From NCBI GenBank assembly GCA_023252275.1, contig JAHHGO010000002.1, positions 1 through 41,651 of the forward strand: a stretch of 41,651 bases of DNA. Direction: 5' to 3'. Below the pieces are notes generated by a model, which was not told the origin of the DNA, did no database searches, and saw only the letters and a list, made by a program, of their open reading frames with translations. This document shows positions 13,388-30,685 of the stretch, in pieces (position 1 is the first letter of the stretch; every line of letters begins with the position of its first letter). This DNA comes from Alphaproteobacteria bacterium. Its GTDB lineage: Bacteria; Pseudomonadota; Alphaproteobacteria; UBA11222. Position numbers and translations under genes: made by a program.

Positions 13388-14122
13388 CTATCCCGCCTTT
13401 TTCATTTCAAGGATCACGGCATTGGCATAAAGCCACGCACCGGTGAGCGAGGCGAAATACACCACATCGCGCAGATCAATCACGCCATTGGTGATGGCGT
13501 CGAAATGCGTCAGGAAACTGAATGAGGCAATCGCCGCCAGCAGCGCTTCTGGCGCCCAGGCGGAAAAGAAATCCAGCACCATGGGCAGGCCGCTGACCGT
13601 GAACAGGAAGCACACCGAAACCGTCACCACAAAGGCGATCACCTGATTGCGGGTGGTGGCGGAAATGGCCGAGCCGATCGCCAGATAGGCGCCCGCCATC
13701 AGCGCGCTGCCGATATAGCTGGCCAGGATCACCCCATTATCCGGATCGCCCAGATAATTGACCGTGATCCAGATCGGGAAGGTCAGCGCCAGCGCCACCA
13801 TGGCAAAGCCCCAGGCGGCCAGATATTTTCCCAGCACCACGGCCCATAGCGGCACGGGCAGGGTCAATAGCAGCTCGATGGTGCCGGATTTGGTTTCCTC
13901 GGCCCACAGGCGCATGCTGATGGCGGGGATTAAAAACAGATACAGCCAGGGATGAAATGAGAAGAAGTTTTTCAGGCTGGCCTCGCCGGCCTCAAAAAAC
14001 TGGCCGATATAAAATGTCGTAAGCCCGGTGAGAAACAGGAAAATGACAATAAAAATATAGGCCAGCGGCGTGGCGAAATAGCCCATAAATTCGCGCTTTA
14101 AGACCAGCATTAATCCGTTCAT
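13388..14122 (-). CDS. ABC-2 family transporter permease (GldF-like)
   Basis: Polytopic, with the EETKSGTIELLLTLPV motif characteristic of ABC-2 / NosY / GldF-type permeases. An ATGA overlap joins it to the ATPase gene. Confidence 0.8.
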   Translation of the reverse strand: MNGLMLVLKREFMGYFATPLAYIFIVIFLFLTGLTTFYIGQFFEAGEASLKNFFSFHPWLYLFLIPAISMRLWAEETKSGTIELLLTLPVPLWAVVLGKYLAAWGFAMVALALTFPIWITVNYLGDPDNGVILASYIGSALMAGAYLAIGSAISATTRNQVIAFVVTVSVCFLFTVSGLPMVLDFFSAWAPEALLAAIASFSFLTHFDAITNGVIDLRDVVYFASLTGAWLYANAVILEMKKAG

Positions 14123-14847
14123 GCGTGATGCCCGTGCAGATCGCCGGTGGTCAATTGCCGGAATACTTCATCCAGCCGCCCGCGCTTTTCAAGCTCGGCG
14201 GGCGTCGCGTCGGCCACGATGCGGCCGCGGTCAATAATGATCGCGCGGGTGCAGATGGCGTCCACTTCTTCCAGTATATGGGTGGAAATGATGATCGCCT
14301 TATGCGGCGCCATTTCGGCAATCAACTGGCGCACCGTATGTTTCTGGTTGGGGTCCAGCCCATCGGTGGGTTCATCCATGATCAGCACCGGCGGATCGTG
14401 CAAAATCGCCTGGGCCAGGCCGACGCGGCGCTTGAAGCCTTTGGAGAGGGTGTCGATCGGCTGTTCCATCACGCCGGCAAGGCCGGTGCGCTCCACCGTC
14501 TGCGCAATGGCGCGATCGCGCGCCGCCCCGCTCAGGCGGCGAACCCCGGCAATGAACAGCAGAAATTCGCGCGGTGTCATGTCCGGATAGGCGGGCGCGC
14601 CTTCCGGCAGATAGCCCAGGCTTTGCTTGACGCCGATCGGGTCAATCGTCACATCCCGGCCCAGCACCCGGGCCGTGCCGGAAGTGGGCGCCAGAAAGCC
14701 GGTGATCATTTTCATGGTGGTGGATTTGCCCGCGCCATTGGGGCCGAGAAAGCCCAGCACCTCGCCCTTATTCACTGTGAAACTGACGCCATCGACCGCC
14801 GTGATCAGCGGACCGAATTTTTTAACCAGTGCGTCGACTTCAATCAT
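14119..14847 (-). CDS. ABC transporter ATP-binding protein (GldA-like)
   Basis: Walker A GPNGAGKST, signature LSKGFKRR and Walker B LIMDEPTDGLD are present. The start is ATG 14847 (MIEVDALVKKFG). Confidence 0.9.
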   Translation of the reverse strand: MIEVDALVKKFGPLITAVDGVSFTVNKGEVLGFLGPNGAGKSTTMKMITGFLAPTSGTARVLGRDVTIDPIGVKQSLGYLPEGAPAYPDMTPREFLLFIAGVRRLSGAARDRAIAQTVERTGLAGVMEQPIDTLSKGFKRRVGLAQAILHDPPVLIMDEPTDGLDPNQKHTVRQLIAEMAPHKAIIISTHILEEVDAICTRAIIIDRGRIVADATPAELEKRGRLDEVFRQLTTGDLHGHHA

Positions 14848-15045
14848 ATAAGCGCCAAATGATGCGATAAAAAACTGCTCGCGCGGCTTTACCCTCAACT
14901 CACCGGACTAAATAGTCAAAGCGCCCCCCCTGCGCAAGTCATATGGTTGTGAACGGTATTATTCTATCCCGCGCGGAACATTGACCCCGCGCAATGATGG
15001 TGTAGGATGCAGCCAAGCAATATCAAACGAATCTCAGGGGAAATC

Positions 15046-15879
15046 ATGGGGCAGACCAGCAATCTGATGCAAGGCAAGCGTGGCCTGATCATGGGGGTCG
15101 CCAATGATCGCTCGCTGGCCTGGGGCATCGCAAAAACTTGCCATGAGCATGGCGCGGAACTGGCCTTTTCCTATCAGGGTGAGGCGCTGCTCAAACGGGT
15201 GACGCCGCTGGCGCAATCGCTGGGATCAAAGCTGGTGCTGCCCTGCGATGTGACCGATGCCGCCAGCATGGATGAACTGTTTGAAAGCCTGCGCCGGGAA
15301 TGGGGCCAGCTTGATTTCGTGGTGCATGCCATTGCCTATTCCGCCAAGGAGGAGTTGAAGGGGCGCTATGTCGATACTTCGCCCGAAAATTTCGCCATGA
15401 GCATGAATATATCCTGCTATTCGTTCACCGCGGTCACGCAGCGCGCGGAAAGGCTGATGCCCAATGGCGGCAGCCTGCTGACCCTGACCTATTACGGCGC
15501 GGAAAAGGTGATGCCGCATTATAATGTGATGGGCGTCGCCAAGGCCGCGCTGGAAGCCAGCGTGCGCTACCTCGCGGCTGATCTGGGCGCCAAAAATATT
15601 CGCGTGAACGCCATTTCCGCCGGGCCGGTCAAAACGCTGGCCGCCAGCGCGATTGGCGATTTCCGCTATATTCTGAAATGGAACGAACTGAACTCGCCGC
15701 TGAAGCGTAACGTCACCATCGAGGAAGTGGGCAAGGCGGCCATGTTCCTGCTCAGCGATCTGGGCAGCGGCGTGACCGGCGAATTAAGCCATGTGGATTG
15801 CGGCTACAACATTATCGGCATGAAAGACGAAAACGCCCCGGACATTGCCGTGGCGATGGCGGGCGGCAAAGGCGAGTAA
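15046..15879 (+). CDS. fabI: Enoyl-[acyl-carrier-protein] reductase (NADH) FabI
   Basis: Contains [21 protein letters not shown], the [22 protein letters not shown] catalytic Tyr/Lys region, and [17 protein letters not shown] 15046 is preceded by CAGGGGA. Confidence 0.9.
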
Positions 15880-19785: not shown

Positions 19786-20052
19786 ATGGCGAATAACAGG
19801 CAGGCAAAAAAGCGTATCCGGCAGACAGCCACGCGAACCGTGGTTAATGGGGCCCGCCGCAGCCGCGTCCGCAGCTTTGTCCGCCAAGTCGAAGACGCCA
19901 TTTCAAAGGGCGATAGCGCAGCGGCGCAGGCGGCTTTGAAAGTGGTCGAGCCTGAGCTGATGCGGGGCGCGCAAAAAGGCGCCCTGAAGAAACGCGCCGC
20001 TTCGCGCAAAGTGTCCCGCCTGACTATCCGGGTGAACGCTTTAGGGGCCTAG
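19786..20052 (+). CDS. rpsT: 30S ribosomal protein S20
   Basis: [36 protein letters not shown]... is a textbook S20 sequence. Confidence 0.95.
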
Positions 20053-20689
20053 CGCAGCAATAGCCATCCGGCATGAGGCGGGGCCTTATGGTGGATGAAT
20101 GGGTTTGTTCTAAAAAAAACCCAGAAAAATCAATGCTTCTCAGGCCCTAATCCTTGTTACATCTCATATGGCCGCAGCCTTGATGCCTGGCTTGCGCCAA
20201 CTGCTTTATTGAGCGGCTGATCCATTAATTCATCAAATCATCACATGACACGATTTCGCCTGTAAGCGCGCAACCAGCCTGGATTGGGCTCCACAAGGGG
20301 CAGAATGTATCAAAATTGCAACATGGGATTTAGGGGTTTAGGGTTTGTCTATACAGGTCTGCAGGTTTCCCGCATGCCCGCATTTTTCCGCCTGCAAAAT
20401 GACGGCGTCAAGGTCAAGACAATTATCTGCTTAAAACAAAAATTTTATTTCCCAATACCTATTGCACAAGGAAAATGACCTAGATACACTGTGAACGGTT
20501 GGTTAGCATCGCGTACAACAACAGATAAAATAATAGAAAATTTGAATAAATGTAACAGATATACTTATCTGATTGGGCAATTATTGACTATTATTTGGGC
20601 AGATCAAAGCATTAAATAAAGATTTACTTTTATTCGATATTTTTTTGCCGTTTTACTTTGTTATTAACCTCAATCCCGTTCAGGAAGAG
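20053..20689. other. About 640-bp AT-rich non-coding region upstream of the rhodanese gene and dnaA (candidate dnaA control region; oriC status unproven)
   Basis: There is no convincing ORF here. The region is markedly more AT-rich than its flanks, especially 20400-20660. It contains short repeats (GGGATTTA GGGGTTTA GGGTTTG at 20325-20346; CCCGCAT x2 at 20369-20383). Confidence 0.5.
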
Positions 20690-21166
20690 ATGACCGCATC
20701 CGAACCAAATCATCCGTTGCCTGAAGAAAATTCCTCTCTGGGATATGCTGGTGATCTTGATCCCATTCAGGCTTGGGAACTGTTGTCAAAAGAGCGCGAT
20801 TCTGTGCTGATTGATGTACGCACCAGCGCCGAATGGAATTTTATCGGCCTTTCCGATCTTTCATCCGTAGGCAAACAACCTGTCACAATTGAATGGCAGA
20901 GCCTGCCCGGCATGGCGCGCAATCCGGATTTTGACAAACAGGTTAAACAGGCTGTGGCGCAGTGCAATGCCGGCGCTGATAGCGCACTGATTTTTATCTG
21001 CCGATCCGGGGCGCGTTCACGCGATGCGGCCATCAGCCTTGCGCAACAGGGCTTCAGGCGCTGCTACAATCTGTCCGGCGGGTTCGAAGGGGACCTTGAT
21101 GCGGAACGGCATCGGGGTAACAAAAACGGGTGGAAATTCAAGGGGCTACCCTGGAAACAGGGATAA
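20690..21166 (+). CDS. Rhodanese-like domain protein
   Basis: Contains LIDVRTSAEWNFIG and the active-site loop FICRSGARS. ATG 20690 is preceded by CAGGAAGAG. Confidence 0.8.
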   Translation: MTASEPNHPLPEENSSLGYAGDLDPIQAWELLSKERDSVLIDVRTSAEWNFIGLSDLSSVGKQPVTIEWQSLPGMARNPDFDKQVKQAVAQCNAGADSALIFICRSGARSRDAAISLAQQGFRRCYNLSGGFEGDLDAERHRGNKNGWKFKGLPWKQG

Positions 21167-21199: not shown

Positions 21200-22753
21200 A
21201 TGACTAACATTAATCCTGACACGGATGGGCCGGAGGCTACGCCATCTGCCCCCCGGATTGCCGCTTCAGGAACCATTTCAGACAGGACGCCAGTGGAAAA
21301 TTCAACAGAGATTTCGTCCCATGAAGCCGCACAACAATGGCAGCAGGTGGTGGCCATTCTGCGCCGGGATCTGGGCGAGGCCACCTATCAGAACTGGTTG
21401 TGCATTATCGGATGCGACCGCATTGAGGGGGGGTGTGCGCTACTTACAGCGCCCAGCCGTTTCAAACGCGACTGGATCACGGCGCATCTGGGCGATCAAA
21501 TGCTGAAGGCCTGGGGCGCCGTTAACAGCCAGGTGCTGCGGCTGGATATTCTCGCCCGGGAAACCAGTCCGGCGGCGGGCGCCGGAAATGTTCCGCTTGG
21601 CGGCGCGAATAGCGGCAATTCAGCCGCCGTTAGCTCGGGCTTCGCCCAGGCGCAGCCGGCGGCGATCATCCGGTCCGAAATCCAGGCTGACCCCCGCAAC
21701 GGGCAATATGGCCGTCTGGGCGCGCCCCTCGACCCGCGCTTTACCTTTGAAGATTTCGTGGTTGGTAAATCCAACGAATTTGCCAGCGCCGCCGCGCGCC
21801 GCGTGGCCGAAAGCGACACGCCCCCCTTTAACCCGCTGTTTCTGCATGGCGGCGTCGGGCTGGGCAAAACCCATTTGATGCACGCCATTGCGCACGCCAT
21901 CCGCGCCCGGCGTCCGGAACGCACCGTATTGTATCTTTCGGCCGAAAAATTCATGTACCAGTTCATCAAGGCGCTGCGCGACAAGGACACCATGCCCTTC
22001 AAGGAGGCGCTGCGTTCCGTGGACGTGCTGATGGTGGACGATGTGCAGTTTATCGGCGGCAAGGGCTCCACGCAGGAAGAGTTTTTCCATACTTTCAACG
22101 CCCTGATCGATCATCAGAAACAGCTGATCATTTCAGCGGACCGTTCGCCATCAGATCTGGATGGCATTGAGGAACGCATCCGTTCGCGGCTGGGCTGGGG
22201 TCTGGTTGCGGATATTCACCCGACGGATTATGAGCTGCGCCTTGGTATTTTACAGGGCAAGGCCGAAATCGCCCGCCGCCAGATACCGGATATTGAAATT
22301 GCCGAGCCAGTGCTGGAATTTCTGGCCCATCGCATCAATTCCAATGTGCGCGATGTCGAAGGCGCGCTGACCCGGGTGATTGCGTTTGCAACCCTGGTGC
22401 GGCGTCCGATCACCGTGGATATGGCGCGCGAGGTGTTGCAGGACCTGTTGCGGGCCAGCGAACGGCGCATCACGATCGATGAAATTCAGCGCAAGGCCGC
22501 CGAATATTTCAATATCCGCCTTGCCGATATGCTGTCGGCCCGGCGCGCACGCGCCGTCGCCCGGCCCCGCCAGGTCGCCATGTATCTGGCCAAGCAATTG
22601 ACCGCCCGCTCGCTGCCGGAAATAGGCCGCAAATTTGGCGGACGGGATCATACCACCGTCATTCACGCGGTGCGGCGCATCGAACAGCTTCGGGAAAGCG
22701 ACAATGCGCTGAACGAGGATGTCGAGAAATTGCAGAGGCTGTTACAGGGCTAG
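21200..22753 (+). CDS. dnaA: Chromosomal replication initiator protein DnaA
   Basis: Contains the AAA+ Walker [15 protein letters not shown], the box VII/sensor regions, and the C-terminal DNA-binding helix [16 protein letters not shown]. Confidence 0.97.
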
Positions 22754-24611: not shown

Positions 24612-25022
24612 TAGCGACGCCATCAATACTTTTTTGCGATCCCGGGTCTGAAACCGCAGCGCCAGCTTGGCCGTTGTGGTGGTTTTGCCCGAACCCTGCA
24701 GGCCGACCATCAGCACCGGCACCGGCGAAGGCGCGTTGAGATCAATCCCCTGCGATGTGGAGCCCAGCATTTCCACCAGATTGTCATGCACAATCTTGAT
24801 GACCATCTGGCCGGGGGTGATGGATTTGATTACTTCCTGGCCAACGGCGCGGGTGCGCACCCTGGCGATGAAATCACGCGCCACCGGCAGGGCCACATCG
24901 GCTTCCAGAAGCGCCCGGCGTACTTCGCGCAGGGCTGCATCCACGTCCGCTTCGCTTAACGCGGCCTGCTTGCGCAGGGCGTCGAATATAGTGCTCAGCC
25001 GGTCTGAAAGCGTTTCAAACAT
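24612..25022 (-). pseudogene. ffh: ffh (signal recognition particle protein), 5' fragment only (137 codons)
   Basis: MFETLSDRLSTIFDALR...LREVRRALLEADVALPVARDFI...VLMVGLQGSGKTTTTAKLA...KKVLMASL is the Ffh N domain plus the start of the G domain. After ..MASL the 253-aa track ORF is just antisense recF. Confidence 0.85.
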
Positions 25023-25198
25023 AAGGGGTTAGCCCAATTACAAAGCAAAATTGCGCCAGTGGGCGAAACCTCGCTGACTGGCGGTACGGCGTTCTTGACC
25101 CGAAATGTGGTGGATCGGCTGGGAAACTAGGCGCGCTTTGGAGTAGTGTCAAGCAATTGTAGGGATTCGCAGCCTGAATAAAGTAAGGAATATCCGCC

Positions 25199-25687
25199 AT
25201 GTCATATCCCGGTTTAGCCGCCCTGTCCGCCGCCGCCGCCAGATTATTGATTGCGAACGGACAGACGGTGGCGGTTGCCGAATCTTCATGCGGCGGGCTG
25301 ATTTCCGCGGCGCTGGTGGCGGTTCCCGGCGCTTCGGCCTTCTATATAGGCGGCGGCATTGTCTATACCGCGCAGGGCGGCAAGGTGTTGCTGCCGGGGC
25401 GTCCGAAAGGCATGAAGTCCGCGACTACGGATTTTGCGCTGTTTGAAGCGCGCTCTATCCGCACAAGAATGGGCGCCGACTGGGGCATTGGTGAAACCGG
25501 GGCCAGCGGCCCAAGCGGCAATCCCTATGGCAATCCGCCGGGCCATGCCTGTGTCGCGGTCAGTGGCCCCGTTGAACGCGCGCTTGTGCTGTCCACGGGA
25601 AGCGCCGATCGCGAGGCCAATATGTGGGCCTTCGCAAAAGCAGCCCTTGATCTGCTGGCGGAGCTAGCGTCAAAAGGCGGTAGATAG
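25199..25687 (+). CDS. CinA-family protein (C-terminal PncC-type nicotinamide-nucleotide amidohydrolase domain only)
   Basis: LLIANGQTVAVAESSCGGLISAALVAVPGASAFYIGGGIVYT and ..GIGETGASGP.. are typical of the CinA C-terminal domain. Confidence 0.85.
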   Translation: MSYPGLAALSAAAARLLIANGQTVAVAESSCGGLISAALVAVPGASAFYIGGGIVYTAQGGKVLLPGRPKGMKSATTDFALFEARSIRTRMGADWGIGETGASGPSGNPYGNPPGHACVAVSGPVERALVLSTGSADREANMWAFAKAALDLLAELASKGGR

Positions 25688-25711
25688 AATCTTGCTGATT
25701 CGCATGAAATG

Positions 25712-25776
25712 CCTAGGGCAATCTGCATTAAGTTCGAGCCATGAGGCTCGAACTTAATGCGGAAAGCTGCTCTAGG
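25712..25776. repeat. Long palindromic hairpin element downstream of cinA
   Basis: A perfect 16-bp stem, GCATTAAGTTCGAGCC / GGCTCGAACTTAATGC (25725-25740 / 25745-25760), has a 4-nt loop. A second helix, CCTAGGGCA / TGCTCTAGG (8 of 9 bp), extends it across an asymmetric bulge. No U-tract follows. Confidence 0.6.
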
Positions 25777-25790
25777 ACAAGATTAGTGTA

Positions 25791-25806
25791 TTAATCAATT
25801 ATTAAC
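25791..25806. promoter_or_regulatory. CtrA-box-like motif TTAA-N7-TTAAC upstream of the secretin gene
   Basis: TTAATCAATTATTAAC matches the TTAA-N7-TTAAC consensus exactly. It lies about 100 nt upstream of ATG 25904, in an AT-rich spacer. Confidence 0.35.
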
Positions 25807-25903
25807 CTTAATAATTAACTATTTCAGCCAATAAGCGGTTTGTCAGACATAGCGTCATTTACCCATTATTGCTGGACAAGGGCGTCATGAGAGCAGGCAT
25901 TGC

Positions 25904-27853
25904 ATGAAATTGGCCTTAAGTTTTAGCCATCCCGATAGTGGAAAGGTCCGCACTCTTTATTGCCGCGCCGCATTGACAGCCCTGCTGTTGCTGGCCGGGT
26001 GCAGCAACCTGTCGCAACCTGATTTCGACAAACAGGACCGCACCGCCGGAATGACCCGGGATGATTATCGCGATGCGCTGAAGCCGCGCGCGCCGGAAAA
26101 TGACGCTTCCATCCCGCCGCCGCCAATTCCCCAGGCGGAACCCCTTATCCCGATGCCGAATCTGGCGCTGCCGGCCAATGCCAGGCTGGTGACGATTTCG
26201 GTCAATGAAGATGTGCCGCTGCGCGATGTGCTGAGCGAACTTGCGCAACAGGCCAATGTCGGGCTGGAGCTGGATCCGCGCATTACCGGCAGCCTTATTT
26301 TCTCGGTGCGCCAGCGCCCCTTTGAGGAGGTGGTTGACCGCATCGCGGACATGGCTGATCTGCGCTACGACCTTGAAGGCAATGTGCTGCGCATTGAGCG
26401 CGATCTGCCCTATTTGCAGAATTATCGCATCGATTATCTGAATGTCGTGCGCGACACCAGCAGCTCCGTTTCCACCACTGTCGATGTGGTGGGCGGTGAA
26501 TCGGTGGGCGGCGAAGGCGGCGGCCAGGGCAACAGTTCCGCAAGCGAGGTCAAAAGCGAATCCAAAAATAATTTCTGGGAGGAGCTTGAATCAAATATCG
26601 GTATGCTGATGAATCGTAGTTCGCAGCGGGAAAGCCTGCTGTCGGGGTCTGGCGCGGCCGGCGCCGAAGCCGATATTTTCGCTGATGTTCCCGCCCCTCA
26701 GTCCGCCGTGCCCAATCCCCTGCCAATAGTCCCGGCGGTGGCGCAACCGGAATCGGGGGCTGCTGCATCCGGCGGCGCGCCCGCGCCGGCAGCCGTTGCC
26801 GCAGTTGTGCAGGCGGCGGGCGGCGGCGCATCTCCTTTCCCCGCAACTGCCGCTGCAGTCCAGGCGGAGCAACCCGCCGACGCTGAAAGCCCCAATCAGC
26901 GTCCTTACAGCATCAACCGGGTTGCCGGCCTGCTCAATGTCTATGGCAGCCAGCGCCAGCACAAAATGATCGAAACCTATCTGCGCAAGCTTCGCCGCGC
27001 CATAGCGGGCCAGGTGCTGATCGAGGCGAAAGTGCTGGAAGTGCAGCTATCGGATAATTTTTCAAGCGGCATCAACTGGGCGGGCGTTCTGGGCGCGGCG
27101 ACCGGCGCTGCGCGGTTTGGCGATACCGTGGCCGTGCCGCAGACCCGGCCGTTTAATGATCTGAACACGGCGACGTCGGGCGTGGTGACCCTGGCGCTTG
27201 ATCGCAACGATCTTGATGCGGTCGCAAGCCTGGCGCAGCAATTCGGTACGGTGCGCACACTTTCCAGCCCGCGCCTCACAGTGCAGCACAATCAAAGCGC
27301 CGTGTTGAAGGTTGTTGAGAACCGGGTGTTTTTCGAACTGGATTTTGAACGCACCCTGCTTGACAATGGCGATGAACGCACGACGGTTGACAGCAATATC
27401 CGCACTGTTCCCGAAGGCGTCATCATCACCGTGCAGCCGTCCATTCACAGTGAGACGGATGAAATCGGCATGACGCTGCGCCCGACCATCACGCGCATTA
27501 CCGGCACCATCAATGATCCGGGCGTGTCGATTGCGTCCAACAATACGGTGCAATCGCCGGTGCCGATTATCGCCGTGCAGGAAATTGACAGTATGGTGAC
27601 GATGCGTTCCGGCCGCGTGCTGGTTATGGGTGGTTTGATGCAGGATACCAGCACAACCGGCGAAACCGGATTGCCCGGCGTCTCGGGTCTGCCAATTGTC
27701 GGCAATCTGTTCAAGGCGCGCAATGACATCAACAATCAGACCGAGCTGGTCATATTTCTGCGCGCCACCATCATAGAGGATAGCGGCGCCACCGCCGCCG
27801 ATATTGACCTTTACAAAACCTTCGGGCGCGACCGCCGTCCATTACCCTTCTAG
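25904..27853 (+). CDS. Secretin-family outer-membrane channel, lipoprotein type (MshL/PilQ/GspD-like)
   Basis: It has a lipobox (LLLLAGCS), an N-terminal secretin-N-like domain (DVLSELAQQANVGLELDP), a long Gly/Ala/Pro-rich linker, and a C-terminal secretin core (VRTLSSPRLTVQHNQSAVLKV, VPIIAVQEIDSMVTMRSGRVLVMGGL, LPGVSGLPIVGNLF, TELVIFLRATII). Confidence 0.85.
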   Translation: MKLALSFSHPDSGKVRTLYCRAALTALLLLAGCSNLSQPDFDKQDRTAGMTRDDYRDALKPRAPENDASIPPPPIPQAEPLIPMPNLALPANARLVTISVNEDVPLRDVLSELAQQANVGLELDPRITGSLIFSVRQRPFEEVVDRIADMADLRYDLEGNVLRIERDLPYLQNYRIDYLNVVRDTSSSVSTTVDVVGGESVGGEGGGQGNSSASEVKSESKNNFWEELESNIGMLMNRSSQRESLLSGSGAAGAEADIFADVPAPQSAVPNPLPIVPAVAQPESGAAASGGAPAPAAVAAVVQAAGGGASPFPATAAAVQAEQPADAESPNQRPYSINRVAGLLNVYGSQRQHKMIETYLRKLRRAIAGQVLIEAKVLEVQLSDNFSSGINWAGVLGAATGAARFGDTVAVPQTRPFNDLNTATSGVVTLALDRNDLDAVASLAQQFGTVRTLSSPRLTVQHNQSAVLKVVENRVFFELDFERTLLDNGDERTTVDSNIRTVPEGVIITVQPSIHSETDEIGMTLRPTITRITGTINDPGVSIASNNTVQSPVPIIAVQEIDSMVTMRSGRVLVMGGLMQDTSTTGETGLPGVSGLPIVGNLFKARNDINNQTELVIFLRATIIEDSGATAADIDLYKTFGRDRRPLPF

Positions 27854-27857
27854 CCGG

Positions 27858-28646
27858 ATGCGCGCGGGCCAGCTCACGCTCAGTACGGCATTGCTGCGCT
27901 ATATGTTTGCCTCCGCCGTGCGCGACCGGCTGTTTCTGGCGTTACCTGTGATGCTGGCGGTTGCGGCCGCGCTGGTTATTTTTCTCAGCGGCAGCGCAAT
28001 TATTGAACAGCGCGAAATGGCGGCGGCGCTGTTCGGCGCAACGAGCCGTGTACTGATTATTTTCGGCATGGTGATATTTGTCTGTTTTCATATCCGTCAG
28101 GCCATGACGGGCGGCGAGATAGCGCTGATTTTATCGCGGCCGGTTTCGCGCGGCGCATTCGTCCTGAGCTATTGCTTCAGTATGGTGTGTGCGGGGTTTA
28201 TCTGTGTGGCGGCGGGCCTTGTGATGGTGTGGCTGGGCGCGCGTCCGCCGCTTGGCGGTTTGCTGATCTGGGGGCTAACGCTCGCACTCGAAACCATGCT
28301 GATGATCCAGATGGCTATATTTTTCGGGCTGATTCTGAATAATGCCGTCAGCAGCGTTATGGCCTGTCTGGGATTTTACGTTCTGGCGCGGATGAGCGGC
28401 CTGCTTGGCGCGCTGGCGGTCAAGGCCGATGCGGGCGGAGGGATGCCGGATGTTTTTCTGGGTTATGGTTTCAGGCTTATCTCGCTCGTCATTCCAAGGC
28501 TGGATTTCTTTACCCGCAGCGAATGGCTTGTATATGGCGTGAATGGCGGCGAGCCGGGCCTGGGCTGGCCGCTGCTTCAGGCGCTGGTGTTTGCGCCACT
28601 GATCCTGGCCGCCACCATGATCGATTTCAGCCGCAAGCGGTTATGA
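27858..28646 (+). CDS. Polytopic membrane protein with an ABC-2/NosY-like permease signature; no ATPase partner nearby
   Basis: It has about 6 predicted TM segments. The motif GGEIALILSRPVSRGAFVLSY resembles the E-x-GT-xE-LLxxPVSR motif of ABC-2 permeases (compare 13388-14122). It starts 4 nt after the secretin stop. Confidence 0.55.
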   Translation: MRAGQLTLSTALLRYMFASAVRDRLFLALPVMLAVAAALVIFLSGSAIIEQREMAAALFGATSRVLIIFGMVIFVCFHIRQAMTGGEIALILSRPVSRGAFVLSYCFSMVCAGFICVAAGLVMVWLGARPPLGGLLIWGLTLALETMLMIQMAIFFGLILNNAVSSVMACLGFYVLARMSGLLGALAVKADAGGGMPDVFLGYGFRLISLVIPRLDFFTRSEWLVYGVNGGEPGLGWPLLQALVFAPLILAATMIDFSRKRL

Positions 28647-28647
28647 T

Positions 28648-29361
28648 ATGGGCGGCGAAGGTAAACTCAGACATGTGCCGCCGCCCTTTATTGCGGCTTT
28701 GATCGTGGCGCTGGCCGCGCAAATTCTGTTCTGGTCGGAGGCCCAGAATATCCGCATCCCCTGGAGCGGTGTGGAACTGGCTCCCACCCCCATCGCCGCC
28801 CGGGCCACGGCGCTGGGCGATACGCAATTTTATTACCGGACGGCGGGGCTGGGGCTGCAAAATATGGGGGATTGGGCCGGCGAAATGACCCCATTGGCGC
28901 AATATGATTATGGACGGCTTAGAGGCTGGTTCCGTCTGTTGTCGCAGATGGACCCTGAAAGCCAGTATGCGCCCTCATTGGCCGCCTATTATTACGGGTT
29001 TAGCCCTGATCCGGATGATGTGCGGCAGGTCATTGGTTATTTGCAGGAAATTGCCGCCGACAAGCCACGCGCGCATTGGCGCTGGCTGGCTTATTCCGTC
29101 TATCTGGCGCGCTACCGGGTGAAAGATCCGCAGCTGGGGCTGGCGCTTGCCAGACAATTGGCCGCACTGCCGGTCGCGGACATGCCGGTCTGGACGCGTC
29201 AGCTTCCGGCCTTTGTGCTGGCCGATGCGGGGGAAAAAGAAGCCGCCAAGGATATTCTGGAGGCAATATTGGCGACAACCCCTGATCTGCATCCCGCAGA
29301 ACAGTTCTTTATTCGTAACTATATTGCAACACGCCTGGGTTTTTCATCGAAAACGAGGTGA
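28648..29361 (+). CDS. Membrane-anchored protein of unknown function with a helical-repeat-like soluble domain
   Basis: One N-terminal TM (PPPFIAALIVALAAQILFW) is followed by an Ala/Leu/Tyr/Trp-rich, helical-looking sequence. It starts 1 nt after the previous stop. I recognise no family. Confidence 0.5.
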   Translation: MGGEGKLRHVPPPFIAALIVALAAQILFWSEAQNIRIPWSGVELAPTPIAARATALGDTQFYYRTAGLGLQNMGDWAGEMTPLAQYDYGRLRGWFRLLSQMDPESQYAPSLAAYYYGFSPDPDDVRQVIGYLQEIAADKPRAHWRWLAYSVYLARYRVKDPQLGLALARQLAALPVADMPVWTRQLPAFVLADAGEKEAAKDILEAILATTPDLHPAEQFFIRNYIATRLGFSSKTR

Positions 29362-29380
29362 ATATTTATTTTAGACAAAT

Positions 29381-29396
29381 TTAAGTATCTTTTAAC
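29381..29396. promoter_or_regulatory. CtrA-box-like motif TTAA-N7-TTAAC upstream of the prepilin gene
   Basis: TTAAGTATCTTTTAAC matches the consensus exactly. An extended -10-like TGTGATAAT lies at 29408-29416. Confidence 0.35.
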
Positions 29397-29422
29397 CAGA
29401 TACATGTTGTGATAATTTGTCA

Positions 29423-29440
29423 CTAGAGGGGTCCCTCTAG
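29423..29440. promoter_or_regulatory. Palindromic operator-like site abutting a -35 element
   Basis: CTAGAGGG-GT-CCCTCTAG forms 8-bp perfect arms and ends 2 nt before TTGACA. Confidence 0.4.
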
Positions 29441-29442
29441 GA

Positions 29443-29471
29443 TTGACAGTAAAAAACTCTAGCAATATATG
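29443..29471 (+). promoter_or_regulatory. Sigma70-like promoter candidate for the prepilin gene
   Basis: TTGACA (29443-29448), a 17-nt spacer, then TATATG (29466-29471). It lies about 85 nt upstream of ATG 29557. Confidence 0.35.
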
Positions 29472-29556
29472 CCTAAACTTATCTGAATTAGACGCAGAAA
29501 CGGTTTGGTAACTCCGCCATGCGATACTGCCGCAGCTTAAGAGAGAATGGAAATCA

Positions 29557-30342
29557 ATGATGACCTATAAAGCTGGTTTTAGGGGACTGACCAAAAACAC
29601 CCCAATAATTATTCAGGGTTCTGACAGCGGCCGGCAATCCGGTTTTACGCTTGTCGAGCTTTCGATCGTGCTGGTGATTATCGGATTGATTATCGGCGGT
29701 ATTCTTAAAGGCCAGGAATTGATCGGCAACGCCCAGGTCAAAAATGTGGTCTCGCAGGCGCAGTCCTATCAGGCGGCAACCGCTGCCTTCAGGGATAAGT
29801 ATGGCGCTCTGCCAGGGGATTTGGTCGGCGCAGACAATATAATCCCCAATTGTACGGCGGCGCCATGCCTGCCTGCGGCTGCGGGTAACGGAAACGGCAT
29901 TGTAGGCGCAAATGCCAACGCCACCTATTCAAATAACGTAAGCGCGGCCGCGGAAAATGTTGCGTTCTGGCAGCAGCTTGCCGCAGCCCGCTTCATCGGT
30001 AATATAGACACGGATGGCACAAGCGCGGCTATTTTTGGCGGCCGCTTTCCCAGCGCTGCAACCGGGGGCGGTTTTCAAGTTCTTTTCCAGCCGTTAACGG
30101 GCCGCCATGTGTTGCGGTTGACCGGGACACCGGGCGTGCCGGCCCCCGCCACAGGGGCCCTGCGGCCGGATCAGGCGTTGCAGATTGACCGTGTGCTTGA
30201 CGATGGGCGGCCTGGCACCGGTTCGGTGTTTACCAACACTACCTTATCCGCTGCCGCTACCTGCTTTTCAGGCGTGGTGACAGCTCCCTATCTGGCGGCC
30301 AGCGGTAATAGCACCTGCAATCTGGTTATCGACCTCAACTAG
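29557..30342 (+). CDS. Prepilin-type N-terminal cleavage/methylation domain protein (pilin or pseudopilin) with an unusually long leader
   Basis: ..SDSGRQSG/FTLVELSIVLVIIGLIIGGILKG is the class III signal motif. It is preceded by about 28 residues with no alternative in-frame start closer to the cleavage site. Confidence 0.8.
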   Translation: MMTYKAGFRGLTKNTPIIIQGSDSGRQSGFTLVELSIVLVIIGLIIGGILKGQELIGNAQVKNVVSQAQSYQAATAAFRDKYGALPGDLVGADNIIPNCTAAPCLPAAAGNGNGIVGANANATYSNNVSAAAENVAFWQQLAAARFIGNIDTDGTSAAIFGGRFPSAATGGGFQVLFQPLTGRHVLRLTGTPGVPAPATGALRPDQALQIDRVLDDGRPGTGSVFTNTTLSAAATCFSGVVTAPYLAASGNSTCNLVIDLN

Positions 30343-30374
30343 CCGGGCCAGTCTTAGGCCTTGAAATGAATGGG

Positions 30375-30400
30375 AAGGCCGGGGATTTCCCGGCCTTTTT
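30375..30400 (+). terminator. Rho-independent terminator after the prepilin gene
   Basis: AAGGCCGGG-GATTT-CCCGGCCTT forms a 9-bp GC-rich stem followed by TTT. It starts 33 nt after the stop. Confidence 0.7.
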
Positions 30401-30418
30401 GTCCTGGGGGATGCTAAA

Positions 30419-30685
30419 ATGCACCTGCCTGACGGGTGGTGGAAAAAACAGCGCTCGCGCGGCTTTACCCTGATAGAGCTGGCGATTGTTCTCGCCATAC
30501 TGGGGCTGTTGCTGGGCGGCGGCAGCATGCTGCTGCAACCCCTTATACCAGACGGCATCGAGTTCCTGATGGCCGAGATCGGCAGCGCCTCGACCAAAGC
30601 GCGCGGAGCCGTGCCTTTGGATCTTAACGACAGCTATGGCCAATTCAGCAGGCTGCGCCAGAATGGGCACGGCGTCATCCGCTGA
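30419..30685 (+). CDS. Very short prepilin-like protein (88 aa; about 73 aa mature)
   Basis: MHLPDGWWKKQRSRG/FTLIELAIVLAILGLLLGG is a class III signal motif. GGGGGA lies upstream of ATG 30419. Confidence 0.6.
   Translation: MHLPDGWWKKQRSRGFTLIELAIVLAILGLLLGGGSMLLQPLIPDGIEFLMAEIGSASTKARGAVPLDLNDSYGQFSRLRQNGHGVIR

Follow-up and report, generated by a model that had tools for sequence, protein, structure and literature searches.

An ABC-2-like permease and an anchored TPR-like protein in a probable type IV pilus cluster that is cut short in an alphaproteobacterial contig

Does a secretin gene, when it is followed by genes for an ABC-2-like permease, an anchored helical protein and pilins and has no motor gene at its side, belong to a pilus or secretion system of a new kind, or is it only a part of a system whose remainder lies elsewhere? 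The question is raised by a stretch of 41,651 nucleotides from an alphaproteobacterium (NCBI GenBank assembly GCA_023252275.1, contig JAHHGO010000002.1, positions 1 to 41,651, the entire contig), here called the window, in which an earlier note, written from the sequence alone, had described an orphan, motor-less cluster resembling a pilus or a type II secretion system. Our analysis indicates that the trio of secretin, six-transmembrane (6-TM) permease-like and helical genes, together with the pilin genes behind it (25904-30544), is very probably the opening third of a conserved gene cluster for a type IV pilus (type IV filament) of uncultured Alphaproteobacteria, and that the absence of the motor is a property of two breakpoints in the contig, 24612/24613 and 30544/30545, not of the locus. 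Overall the locus is ordinary and lies in a chimeric or rearranged contig, and its accessory module is undescribed and moderately interesting. What is new is a type IV filament cluster in which an ABC-2-like protein and a tetratricopeptide-repeat-like (TPR-like) protein, with an ATP-binding cassette (ABC) ATPase in addition, make up a module that is conserved and has no name.

The native locus and the two joins

As revealed by blastn, positions 24613-30544 of the window match two contigs, here labelled L087 (GCA_036275355.1) and L086 (a 102-kb ENA contig, contig_29209), at 97.6% and 93.6% identity respectively; no other part of the window matches them, and both alignments end exactly at 24613 and 30544. 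We regard the two as same-species contigs, since the helical protein falls in the same 90% cluster. In both of them leuC, rplS, trmD, rimM, rpsP, a full-length ffh and cinA stand upstream, and cinA is followed by the secretin, the 6-TM protein, the helical protein, two pilins, a 278-aa protein and an ATPase of the GspE/PilB type, which lies about 3 kb downstream. The L087 contig ends inside this ATPase gene, and L086 continues with the platform, further genes and, at the end, an ABC ATPase.

A similar cluster is seen in L001, a contig of a metagenome-assembled genome (MAG) reached via homologues of the 6-TM protein, where behind the trio stand genes for two prepilins of 258 aa each, then two unnamed genes, a T2SSE ATPase and a T2SSF platform, and still others; the same gene order is found in L001 and L006-L010. 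The ATPase lies directly downstream in L087, L086, L001 and L007-L010, and so does the platform in all of these except L087. Genes beyond the platform are carried by L001, L007, L009, L010 and L086, and the ABC ATPase stands at the cluster end in L007, L009, L010, L011, L012, L019, L032 and L086. Moreover, orthologues of the pilin encoded at 29557-30342 are found at the same position in L001, L006-L010, L086 and L087, and in the same-species and sister genomes this pilin gene has one or two further pilin-like genes behind it. The platform is followed by three unnamed proteins of about 540, about 215 and about 170-290 aa, for which no Pfam, NCBIfam or PDB sequence match was obtained.

Two minor observations concern these contigs. 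In L086 frameshifts break up most genes of the cluster into two or three open reading frames (ORFs), as is typical of an uncorrected long-read assembly, and therefore the gene calls of L086 are not to be read as pseudogenes. In L001 a 335-aa protein encoded at 14105-15112, between the minor pilins and the ATPase, gives a weak match to a legume-lectin domain (E 8.6e-5, below cutoff); it was not detected in the other mapped loci, and it could be a pilus-tip adhesin.

The joins cut through genes on both sides. At the left one, recF and the antisense ffh meet head-on at 24612/24613, each without its 3' part. At the right one, the homology to L001 stops at 30543, within the second pilin gene, and L090-L092, three metagenome relatives of the PpoB2 gene of the right flank, match the window from exactly 30544/30545 on. 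The 88-aa ORF at 30419-30685, which the earlier note had taken for a mini-prepilin, spans this join: it shares GFTLIELAIVLAILGLLLGGGSMLLQPL with the pilins of L001 (258 aa) and L087 (269 aa) and then diverges, and its tail is the last 46 residues of a DUF1326-like protein of 241 aa (terminus ...MPDGIEFLMAEIGSASTKARGAVPLELNDSYGQFSRIRQNGHGVVR) that L090 encodes upstream of PpoB2/DUF2182, a gene which normally has the DUF1326-like one before it. Being an in-frame fusion of 42 pilin codons and 46 DUF1326-like codons, it is no gene of its own. Altogether four genes are cut at the two joins, namely recF, ffh, the second pilin gene and the DUF1326-like gene. Since the cluster is cut mid-gene at both ends, the motor genes are missing from the contig, not from the system.

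The absence of the expected partners, on which the earlier note had built, thus holds inside the window, where a phmmer map with pilus components from relatives placed no ATPase, platform or peptidase gene anywhere, but it does not hold for the native locus, which in the relatives has both ATPase and platform. The complete operon adjacent in the sister genomes is the very finding that the note itself had named as refuting its orphan, motor-less system, and that claim has to be given up. Of its two fallback ideas, a remnant or a split system, the remnant comes nearest to the mark.

As for the kind of machine, the secretin scores 103.9 bits against Pfam PF00263 (cutoff 27.5) over residues 444-625, its best secretin model in NCBIfam is TIGR02519 MshL with 213.5 bits, under the cutoff of 250.2, and its PDB sequence matches are GspD and PilQ. 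Both prepilin ORFs carry the type IV pilin signature of PF07963 and TIGR02532, G|FTLxE plus a hydrophobic helix, with N_methyl (PF07963) scores of 28.3 bits for 29557-30342 and 35.5 bits for 30419-30685 (cutoff 21.2), the second being a 42-codon fragment. The extension ATPase of the native locus is GspE/PilB-like and stays under every equivalog cutoff; it passes NF053729, an MshE-related cyclic di-GMP (c-di-GMP) motif, with 46.1 bits (cutoff 38). In the Micavibrio-type clusters described below, a PilT above cutoff occurs together with a second PilT/PilU-like ATPase, and for this reason a pilus is to be preferred to a type II secretion system, which for the window's own clade is still a conceivable, if less likely, assignment.

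The permease and TPR-like genes across the family

The alignment of the helical protein was scanned against species-representative genomes, and the best 80 loci were combined with the loci found earlier and mapped with phmmer, giving 82 non-redundant loci with the helical gene. Most loci of the scan belong to Micavibrio or to other alphaproteobacterial MAGs, and the isolate Rhodospirillaceae LM-1 is represented too; among the best 80 the closest match to the window is 78%, and the window's species is not among them. In 74 of the 78 loci with room for it, the permease gene immediately precedes the helical gene, and in 67 of 69 a secretin gene lies upstream of the permease-TPR pair. Where at least 9 kb could be read on both sides, further pilus genes are present in 43 of 44 loci (a pilin in 40, PilD in 34, a PilT-like gene in 33), and an ABC ATPase lies within 10 kb in 34. 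As had been supposed, the two unplaced genes belong with secretins and pilins, and two protein families that Pfam and NCBIfam leave unnamed now have a place, that of constant companions of a pilus secretin.

Two layouts are observed. In the window's clade and some others, the trio is followed by pilins, the ATPase, the platform, the proteins of about 540, about 215 and about 170-230 aa and the ABC ATPase; in the Micavibrio-type loci, the proteins of about 540 and about 215 aa come first, then a small protein, the ABC ATPase, a TPR protein, PilD, PilT and PilU, and then the trio, an AraC regulator and a pilin. The two look like a rotation of one gene set.

The AraC-type regulator, about 350-360 aa long, comes after the trio and usually before the pilin in the Micavibrio-type loci among L020-L085 (e.g. 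L029 10735-11823) and in the TARA locus L002. Its helix-turn-helix is C-terminal; the N-terminal half, which was read only in L029, is hydrophobic and seems to be embedded in the membrane. The protein is a candidate pilus regulator.

The pair is also found in a cultured betaproteobacterium, Massilia atriviolacea (L089, RXLQ01000003.1, 1-12042), with profile E values of 2.8e-64 and 1.4e-35. There the order is an MshM-like gene, the secretin, a TPR protein, the ATPase, the platform, three unnamed genes, a pilin-like gene, the permease, the TPR-like gene and a pilin. This cluster is MSH-like, with MshM-like and MshN-like genes beside the secretin, and the pair lies between two pilin genes. The layout implies that the permease/TPR pair is the conserved core, that its adjacency to the secretin is not universal, and that it is no plain substitute for MshM/MshN.

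By its model, the 6-TM protein is ABC-2/NosY-like, of a predicted type V (ABCG/NosY-like) fold, and belongs to a large unnamed family, in agreement with the earlier reading of its motif GGEIALILSRPVSR, which is present. The AlphaFold model from the family alignment (A1) has a pLDDT (predicted local distance difference test) of 94.3, and Foldseek gives NosY as the best match with TM-scores of 0.63-0.71 and E values of 2e-5 to 1e-3 (7qba_E, TM-score 0.71, E 6e-5), followed by ABCG25, ABCG5/8 and PmtD; the family profile also matches PmtD by sequence (2.3e-6). For the window protein itself there is no Pfam match at E<=1 and no NCBIfam family, and Pfam ABC2_membrane_2 (PF12679) is matched by 17 of 52 family members, the best at 2.3e-7. 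The family counts 521 clusters (50% identity) at E<=1e-30 and 2370 at E<=1e-3, and some of its members have been named copper-enzyme maturation permeases by JGI annotators. An alternative TTG start of the window gene at 27804 would give a protein of 280 aa.

The 237-aa protein had been called anchored, helical and without a family, and so it appears here too. In its AlphaFold model (pLDDT 91.3) an N-terminal transmembrane (TM) helix is followed by an all-helical solenoid, whose fold matches are generic TPR only (TM-score 0.33-0.45), the top one being the pilotin PilF (2fi7, E 0.03, TM-score 0.36). No Pfam or NCBIfam family is assigned to it, the best TPR model, TPR_14, standing at E 0.37, below threshold; the TPR-like family has no significant PDB sequence match, and against NCBIfam it gives weak FimV_Cterm matches in 7 of 57 members and weak SctY matches in a few. 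As the fold and profile matches are weak, we do not assign the protein to the pilotins, MshN or FimV. Positively charged residues in front of the TM helix are suggestive of a periplasmic location of the helical domain.

The ABC ATPase of the cluster has its best matches in DrrA, NodI, GldA and RbbA, which take their names from export systems of the ABC-2 type or related ones, and ATPases of the DrrA/NodI/GldA kind, as we take it, pair with ABC-2-type permeases. Where the flanks were read (L029, L086) it has no adjoining permease, and in the relatives it is directly preceded by a small single-TM protein. In the window the best ABC ATPase reaches 99 bits, as against 212-249 bits for the cluster orthologues, and thus no cognate ATPase is encoded there.

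A possible ABC module of the pilus, and the alternatives

What, then, could an ABC-2-like permease do in a pilus cluster? The cluster has one orphan permease and one orphan ATPase, and this is our main argument that the two work together; on balance we lean towards the permease, the TPR-like protein and the ABC ATPase being a true functional part of the pilus machine. In the scheme we propose, a prepilin peptidase, whose gene would lie in trans in the window's clade and belongs to the cluster itself in Micavibrio-type loci, would process the pilins, these would be polymerised by the ATPase and the PilC/GspF platform under c-di-GMP control, and the filament would exit through the self-lipidated secretin. 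The permease, the ABC ATPase and the periplasmic TPR-like protein would together be a pilus-dedicated ABC module of the inner membrane, analogous to PilGHI of Myxococcus xanthus, which may handle pilins at the inner membrane or may pass ATP-driven conformational work to its periplasmic partner, like NosDFY. If the module is functional, pilin handling, as proposed for PilGHI, and periplasmic work on the assembly, gating or alignment of the secretin in the manner of NosDFY appear roughly even by these analogies.

Only tentatively can it be suggested that the permease, the TPR-like protein and the ABC ATPase are an obligatory second ATP-driven subcomplex and thereby mark an undescribed subclass of type IV filament machines. 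If this were true, the subclass would be widespread in Alphaproteobacteria, including the predatory Micavibrio, and would reach Betaproteobacteria, coupling ABC mechanical work to pilin handling or secretin function. A full-text literature search for type IV pilus, secretin and ABC-2 permease combined returned nothing relevant. Cultured carriers in which the role could be tested include Micavibrio (represented in the scan by named MAGs), Massilia atriviolacea and Rhodospirillaceae LM-1. The paper on the Micavibrio genome speaks only of dispersed pil genes, and such pili in epibiotic predators may mediate prey attachment (PMC3189940).

Judged by analogy, the closest precedent is PilGHI of M. 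xanthus, which belongs to a type IVa pilus cluster. The pilGHI genes are ABC-transport-like and lie next to pilA, and their deletion abolishes social (S) motility and exopolysaccharide production (PMC5544727); a passage citing Wu et al. 1998 gives PilGHI as a requirement for the translocation of pilin across the inner membrane (PMC3724824), and the mechanism remains without experimental support (PMC6060248). That the arrangement matches no described system, as the earlier note had it, is therefore too strong, pilGHI lying in a type IV pilus cluster and being required for what the pilus does (PMC5544727, PMC3724824, PMC6060248). Alike is that a type IV pilus cluster includes an ABC ATPase together with a permease and a small accessory protein, which is true of the window's relatives and not of the cut window; alike, too, are the encoding of the set next to a pilin gene and the small single-TM protein before the ABC ATPase, as pilG before pilH. 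Unlike PilGHI, however, the permease gene here is apart from the ATPase gene, stands after the secretin gene and is always followed by the gene of the anchored TPR-like protein, and the hosts are Alpha- and Betaproteobacteria. Through the dedicated ABC ATPase of the family, Myxococcus PilGHI, long unexplained, gains possible counterparts in other phyla.

The MSHA pilus of Vibrio (mshHIJKLMNEGF/BACDOPQ) resembles the cluster in other respects: the secretin is nearest to MshL, the ATPase has the MshE-related c-di-GMP motif, and the order secretin - X - helical protein echoes mshL-mshM-mshN. The window's clade has a single locus without a prepilin peptidase, like the MSH loci of PMC6668835, where the MacSyFinder model for MSH makes mshA, mshE, mshG and mshL mandatory, and mshM as well. 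The native locus holds a pilin, a GspE/PilB-type ATPase with the c-di-GMP motif, a GspF-type platform and an MshL-like secretin, none of them above an MSH-specific equivalog cutoff. A search with a partial MshM-like fragment of about 110 aa from Massilia found no MshM in the window or in the fetched stretches of L001 and L006-L011 and matched only L016, L019, L026, L047 and L052, and the gene lists of L086 and L087 have no AAA+ gene beside the secretin. The Micavibrio-type loci differ further by PilD and PilT/PilU, which are absent from MSH loci. As MshM was not found in these stretches of the window's clade and PilT/PilU are present in the Micavibrio-type loci, we do not file the cluster under MSH; to our knowledge, the ABC module is not part of MSH either.

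Two further comparisons concern single proteins. With NosDFY(L), whose NosY is the best structural match of the 6-TM protein, the module would have in common an ABC-2 permease with a separate ATPase and a periplasmic partner, but the identity is 17-19%, there is no NosD, NosL or NosZ context here, and the periplasmic partner is a TPR-like solenoid and not a beta-helix. The TPR-like protein recalls the PilF/PilW/Tgl pilotins, MshN and TadD in being a helical-repeat protein encoded with a secretin, with PilF as its top fold match; however, the match is weak, the protein is TM-anchored and not lipid-anchored, the secretin is itself a lipoprotein, and separate MshN/Tgl-like TPR proteins are encoded in many of the same clusters.

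A possible, if rather doubtful, alternative is that the permease/TPR pair serves the secretin and not the pilins, as an assembly or gating device which replaces MshM/MshN, ExeAB or a pilotin by periplasmic mechanical work. It would fit with the tight packing with the secretin gene (gaps of 4 nt and 1 nt), with the secretin gene directly upstream in nearly all loci counted above, and with the fetched stretches of the window's clade, which have no MshM-like gene, some distant members having one. The PilF fold match and the FimV_Cterm matches point the same way, and NosDFY shows that ABC-2 exporters can act via periplasmic partners. However, all these fold and profile matches of the TPR-like protein are weak, in Massilia it is MshM- and MshN-like genes that adjoin the secretin, the pair having its place between two pilin genes, and PilGHI mutants are reported, in the passage citing Wu et al. 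1998, to be without pilin export, not without secretin (PMC3724824).

Concerning the joins, an assembly chimera is clearly the likelier explanation in comparison with a real rearrangement; four genes, the normally essential ffh among them, are interrupted by two joins that lie 5.9 kb from each other. Were the joins real, the strain would have a copy of the locus that is rearranged or duplicated in part, and of it the genes for the secretin, the permease, the TPR-like protein and the major pilin would survive either as a remnant in decay or as a split system with its machinery encoded elsewhere, which we consider improbable. In its favour, these four genes are intact, with open frames that are 97.6% identical to L087, stand-alone trios occur elsewhere (L004 and L005 alone, L002 and L003 with only PilD and an AraC regulator near), the joins have no common k-mer that would explain a short-read chimera, and the composition is equal in all three contig segments (tetranucleotide correlation r 0.95-0.98), which implies that all come from the same kind of genome. 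Against it, besides the cut genes, the locus is uninterrupted in every close relative with enough contig, and the 26-mer across the right join is not in JGI metagenome contigs, a weakly informative result as the organism may be missing from the collection. A foreign or mobile origin of the block was rejected, its composition being that of the flanks and its ffh-cinA neighbourhood a normal chromosomal one in the relatives. In either case the contig is to be treated as chimeric or rearranged.

It is quite unlikely that the permease, the TPR-like protein and the ABC ATPase make up an unrelated exporter of a lipid, a polysaccharide or a peptide that merely travels with pilus genes. The nearest solved relatives, PmtD, ABCG and NosY, are indeed exporters, and the copper-enzyme maturation label given to some members would agree with it, but the synteny is kept across Micavibrio, Rhodospirillales-like MAGs and a betaproteobacterium despite the reshuffled cluster, and the permease and the ATPase are each orphan inside the same cluster. 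Finally, a new system without a motor, in which an ABC-2 module drives the secretin in place of a PilB/GspE ATPase, is hardly credible, for although the window has no PilB, PilC or PilD gene, the permease sits between the secretin and the helical protein and the family has a dedicated ABC ATPase, the cluster is cut mid-gene, the same-species contigs encode the GspE/PilB-type ATPase a short way downstream, with the platform too in L086, and classical motor or retraction ATPases accompany the trio throughout the family.

Several points weigh against our own reading of a pilus cluster with a functional ABC module in a chimeric contig. The downstream part of the cluster is known from contigs of relatives and not from the source genome itself, and L004 has the trio alone within 20 kb. 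In Massilia the pair is not adjacent to the secretin, and the part of the locus covered has no ABC ATPase. A PilM/N/O/P-like role for the three unnamed proteins after the platform is a guess from their position, the part assigned to the ABC module is inferred from gene neighbourhood only, and the likeness to PilGHI is one of gene content and arrangement. As for the joins, no microhomology or common repeat, which would explain a de Bruijn-graph chimera, was found at the two of them, and the choice between chimera and rearrangement was made from the contig sequence alone.

Features of the window and its flanks

The features of the locus are collected in Table 1. The five ORFs of the earlier note, with their short gaps, the spacer and the hairpin with its T-run, were all found in place, and its secretin and prepilin calls are borne out by the scores given above. 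Exact-sequence look-ups of the window's proteins gave no entry, in a collection from which the window's own record is missing. Its flanks were likewise read correctly, CinA and PpoB2/DUF2182 (right flank) by Pfam and cobT from the translation alone.

Table 1. Coordinates of the pilus block, its truncated ends and the adjoining fragments in the window
Feature	Position	Strand	Remarks
recF, 5' fragment, 148 codons	24169..24612	+	translation ends ...VIWLTPD, then antisense ffh; part of left flank dnaA-dnaN-recF, outside the pilus block; L086/L087 homology starts only at 24613
Block from native ffh-cinA-pilus locus, 5,932 bp	24613..30544	.	blastn against L087 and L086
ffh (SRP54), 5' fragment, 137 codons, without 3' part	24613..25022	-	full-length 476 aa at the same place in L087
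CinA/PncC-domain gene	25199..25687	+	Pfam CinA 3.4e-31; native upstream neighbour, also in L086 and L087
Palindromic element 3' of cinA, possible terminator or REP/MITE-like repeat	25713..25785	.	fold energy -49.7 kcal/mol
Lipoprotein secretin, 649 aa, nearest MshL	25904..27853	+	Pfam Secretin 9.3e-30; lipobox LLAGC
ABC-2/NosY-fold 6-TM permease-like protein (predicted), 262 aa from ATG	27858..28646	+	model and family profile
Anchored TPR-like helical protein, 237 aa	28648..29361	+	N-terminal TM and solenoid in model
AT-rich spacer, 195 bp, before pilin gene	29362..29556	.	
Prepilin, candidate major pilin, 261 aa	29557..30342	+	N_methyl 1.2e-6; long leader ending ...RQSG|FTLVELS
Intrinsic-terminator-like hairpin and T-run, 3' of pilin gene	30371..30400	+	
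Second pilin gene, 5' fragment, 42 codons	30419..30544	+	identity to L001/L087 pilins through GFTLIELAIVLAILGLLLGGGSMLLQPL
DUF1326-like gene, 3' fragment, 46 codons and stop	30545..30685	+	fused in frame to pilin fragment; right flank begins

In the left flank, the G+C content falls to 0.449 in the bin 20001-21000, as compared with about 0.58 elsewhere; this bin lies just upstream of dnaA (21200-22753) and is probably the replication origin region.

The palindrome behind cinA is near-perfect, with a stem of about 19 bp. A second copy, with 85% identity, is found in the sister contigs L087 (9579-9640) and L088 (3685-3746), where it sits in an insertion of about 130 bp in the spacer between the TPR-like and pilin genes. 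From its sequence and places, the element looks like a small mobile repeat of the REP (repetitive extragenic palindrome) or MITE (miniature inverted-repeat transposable element) kind.

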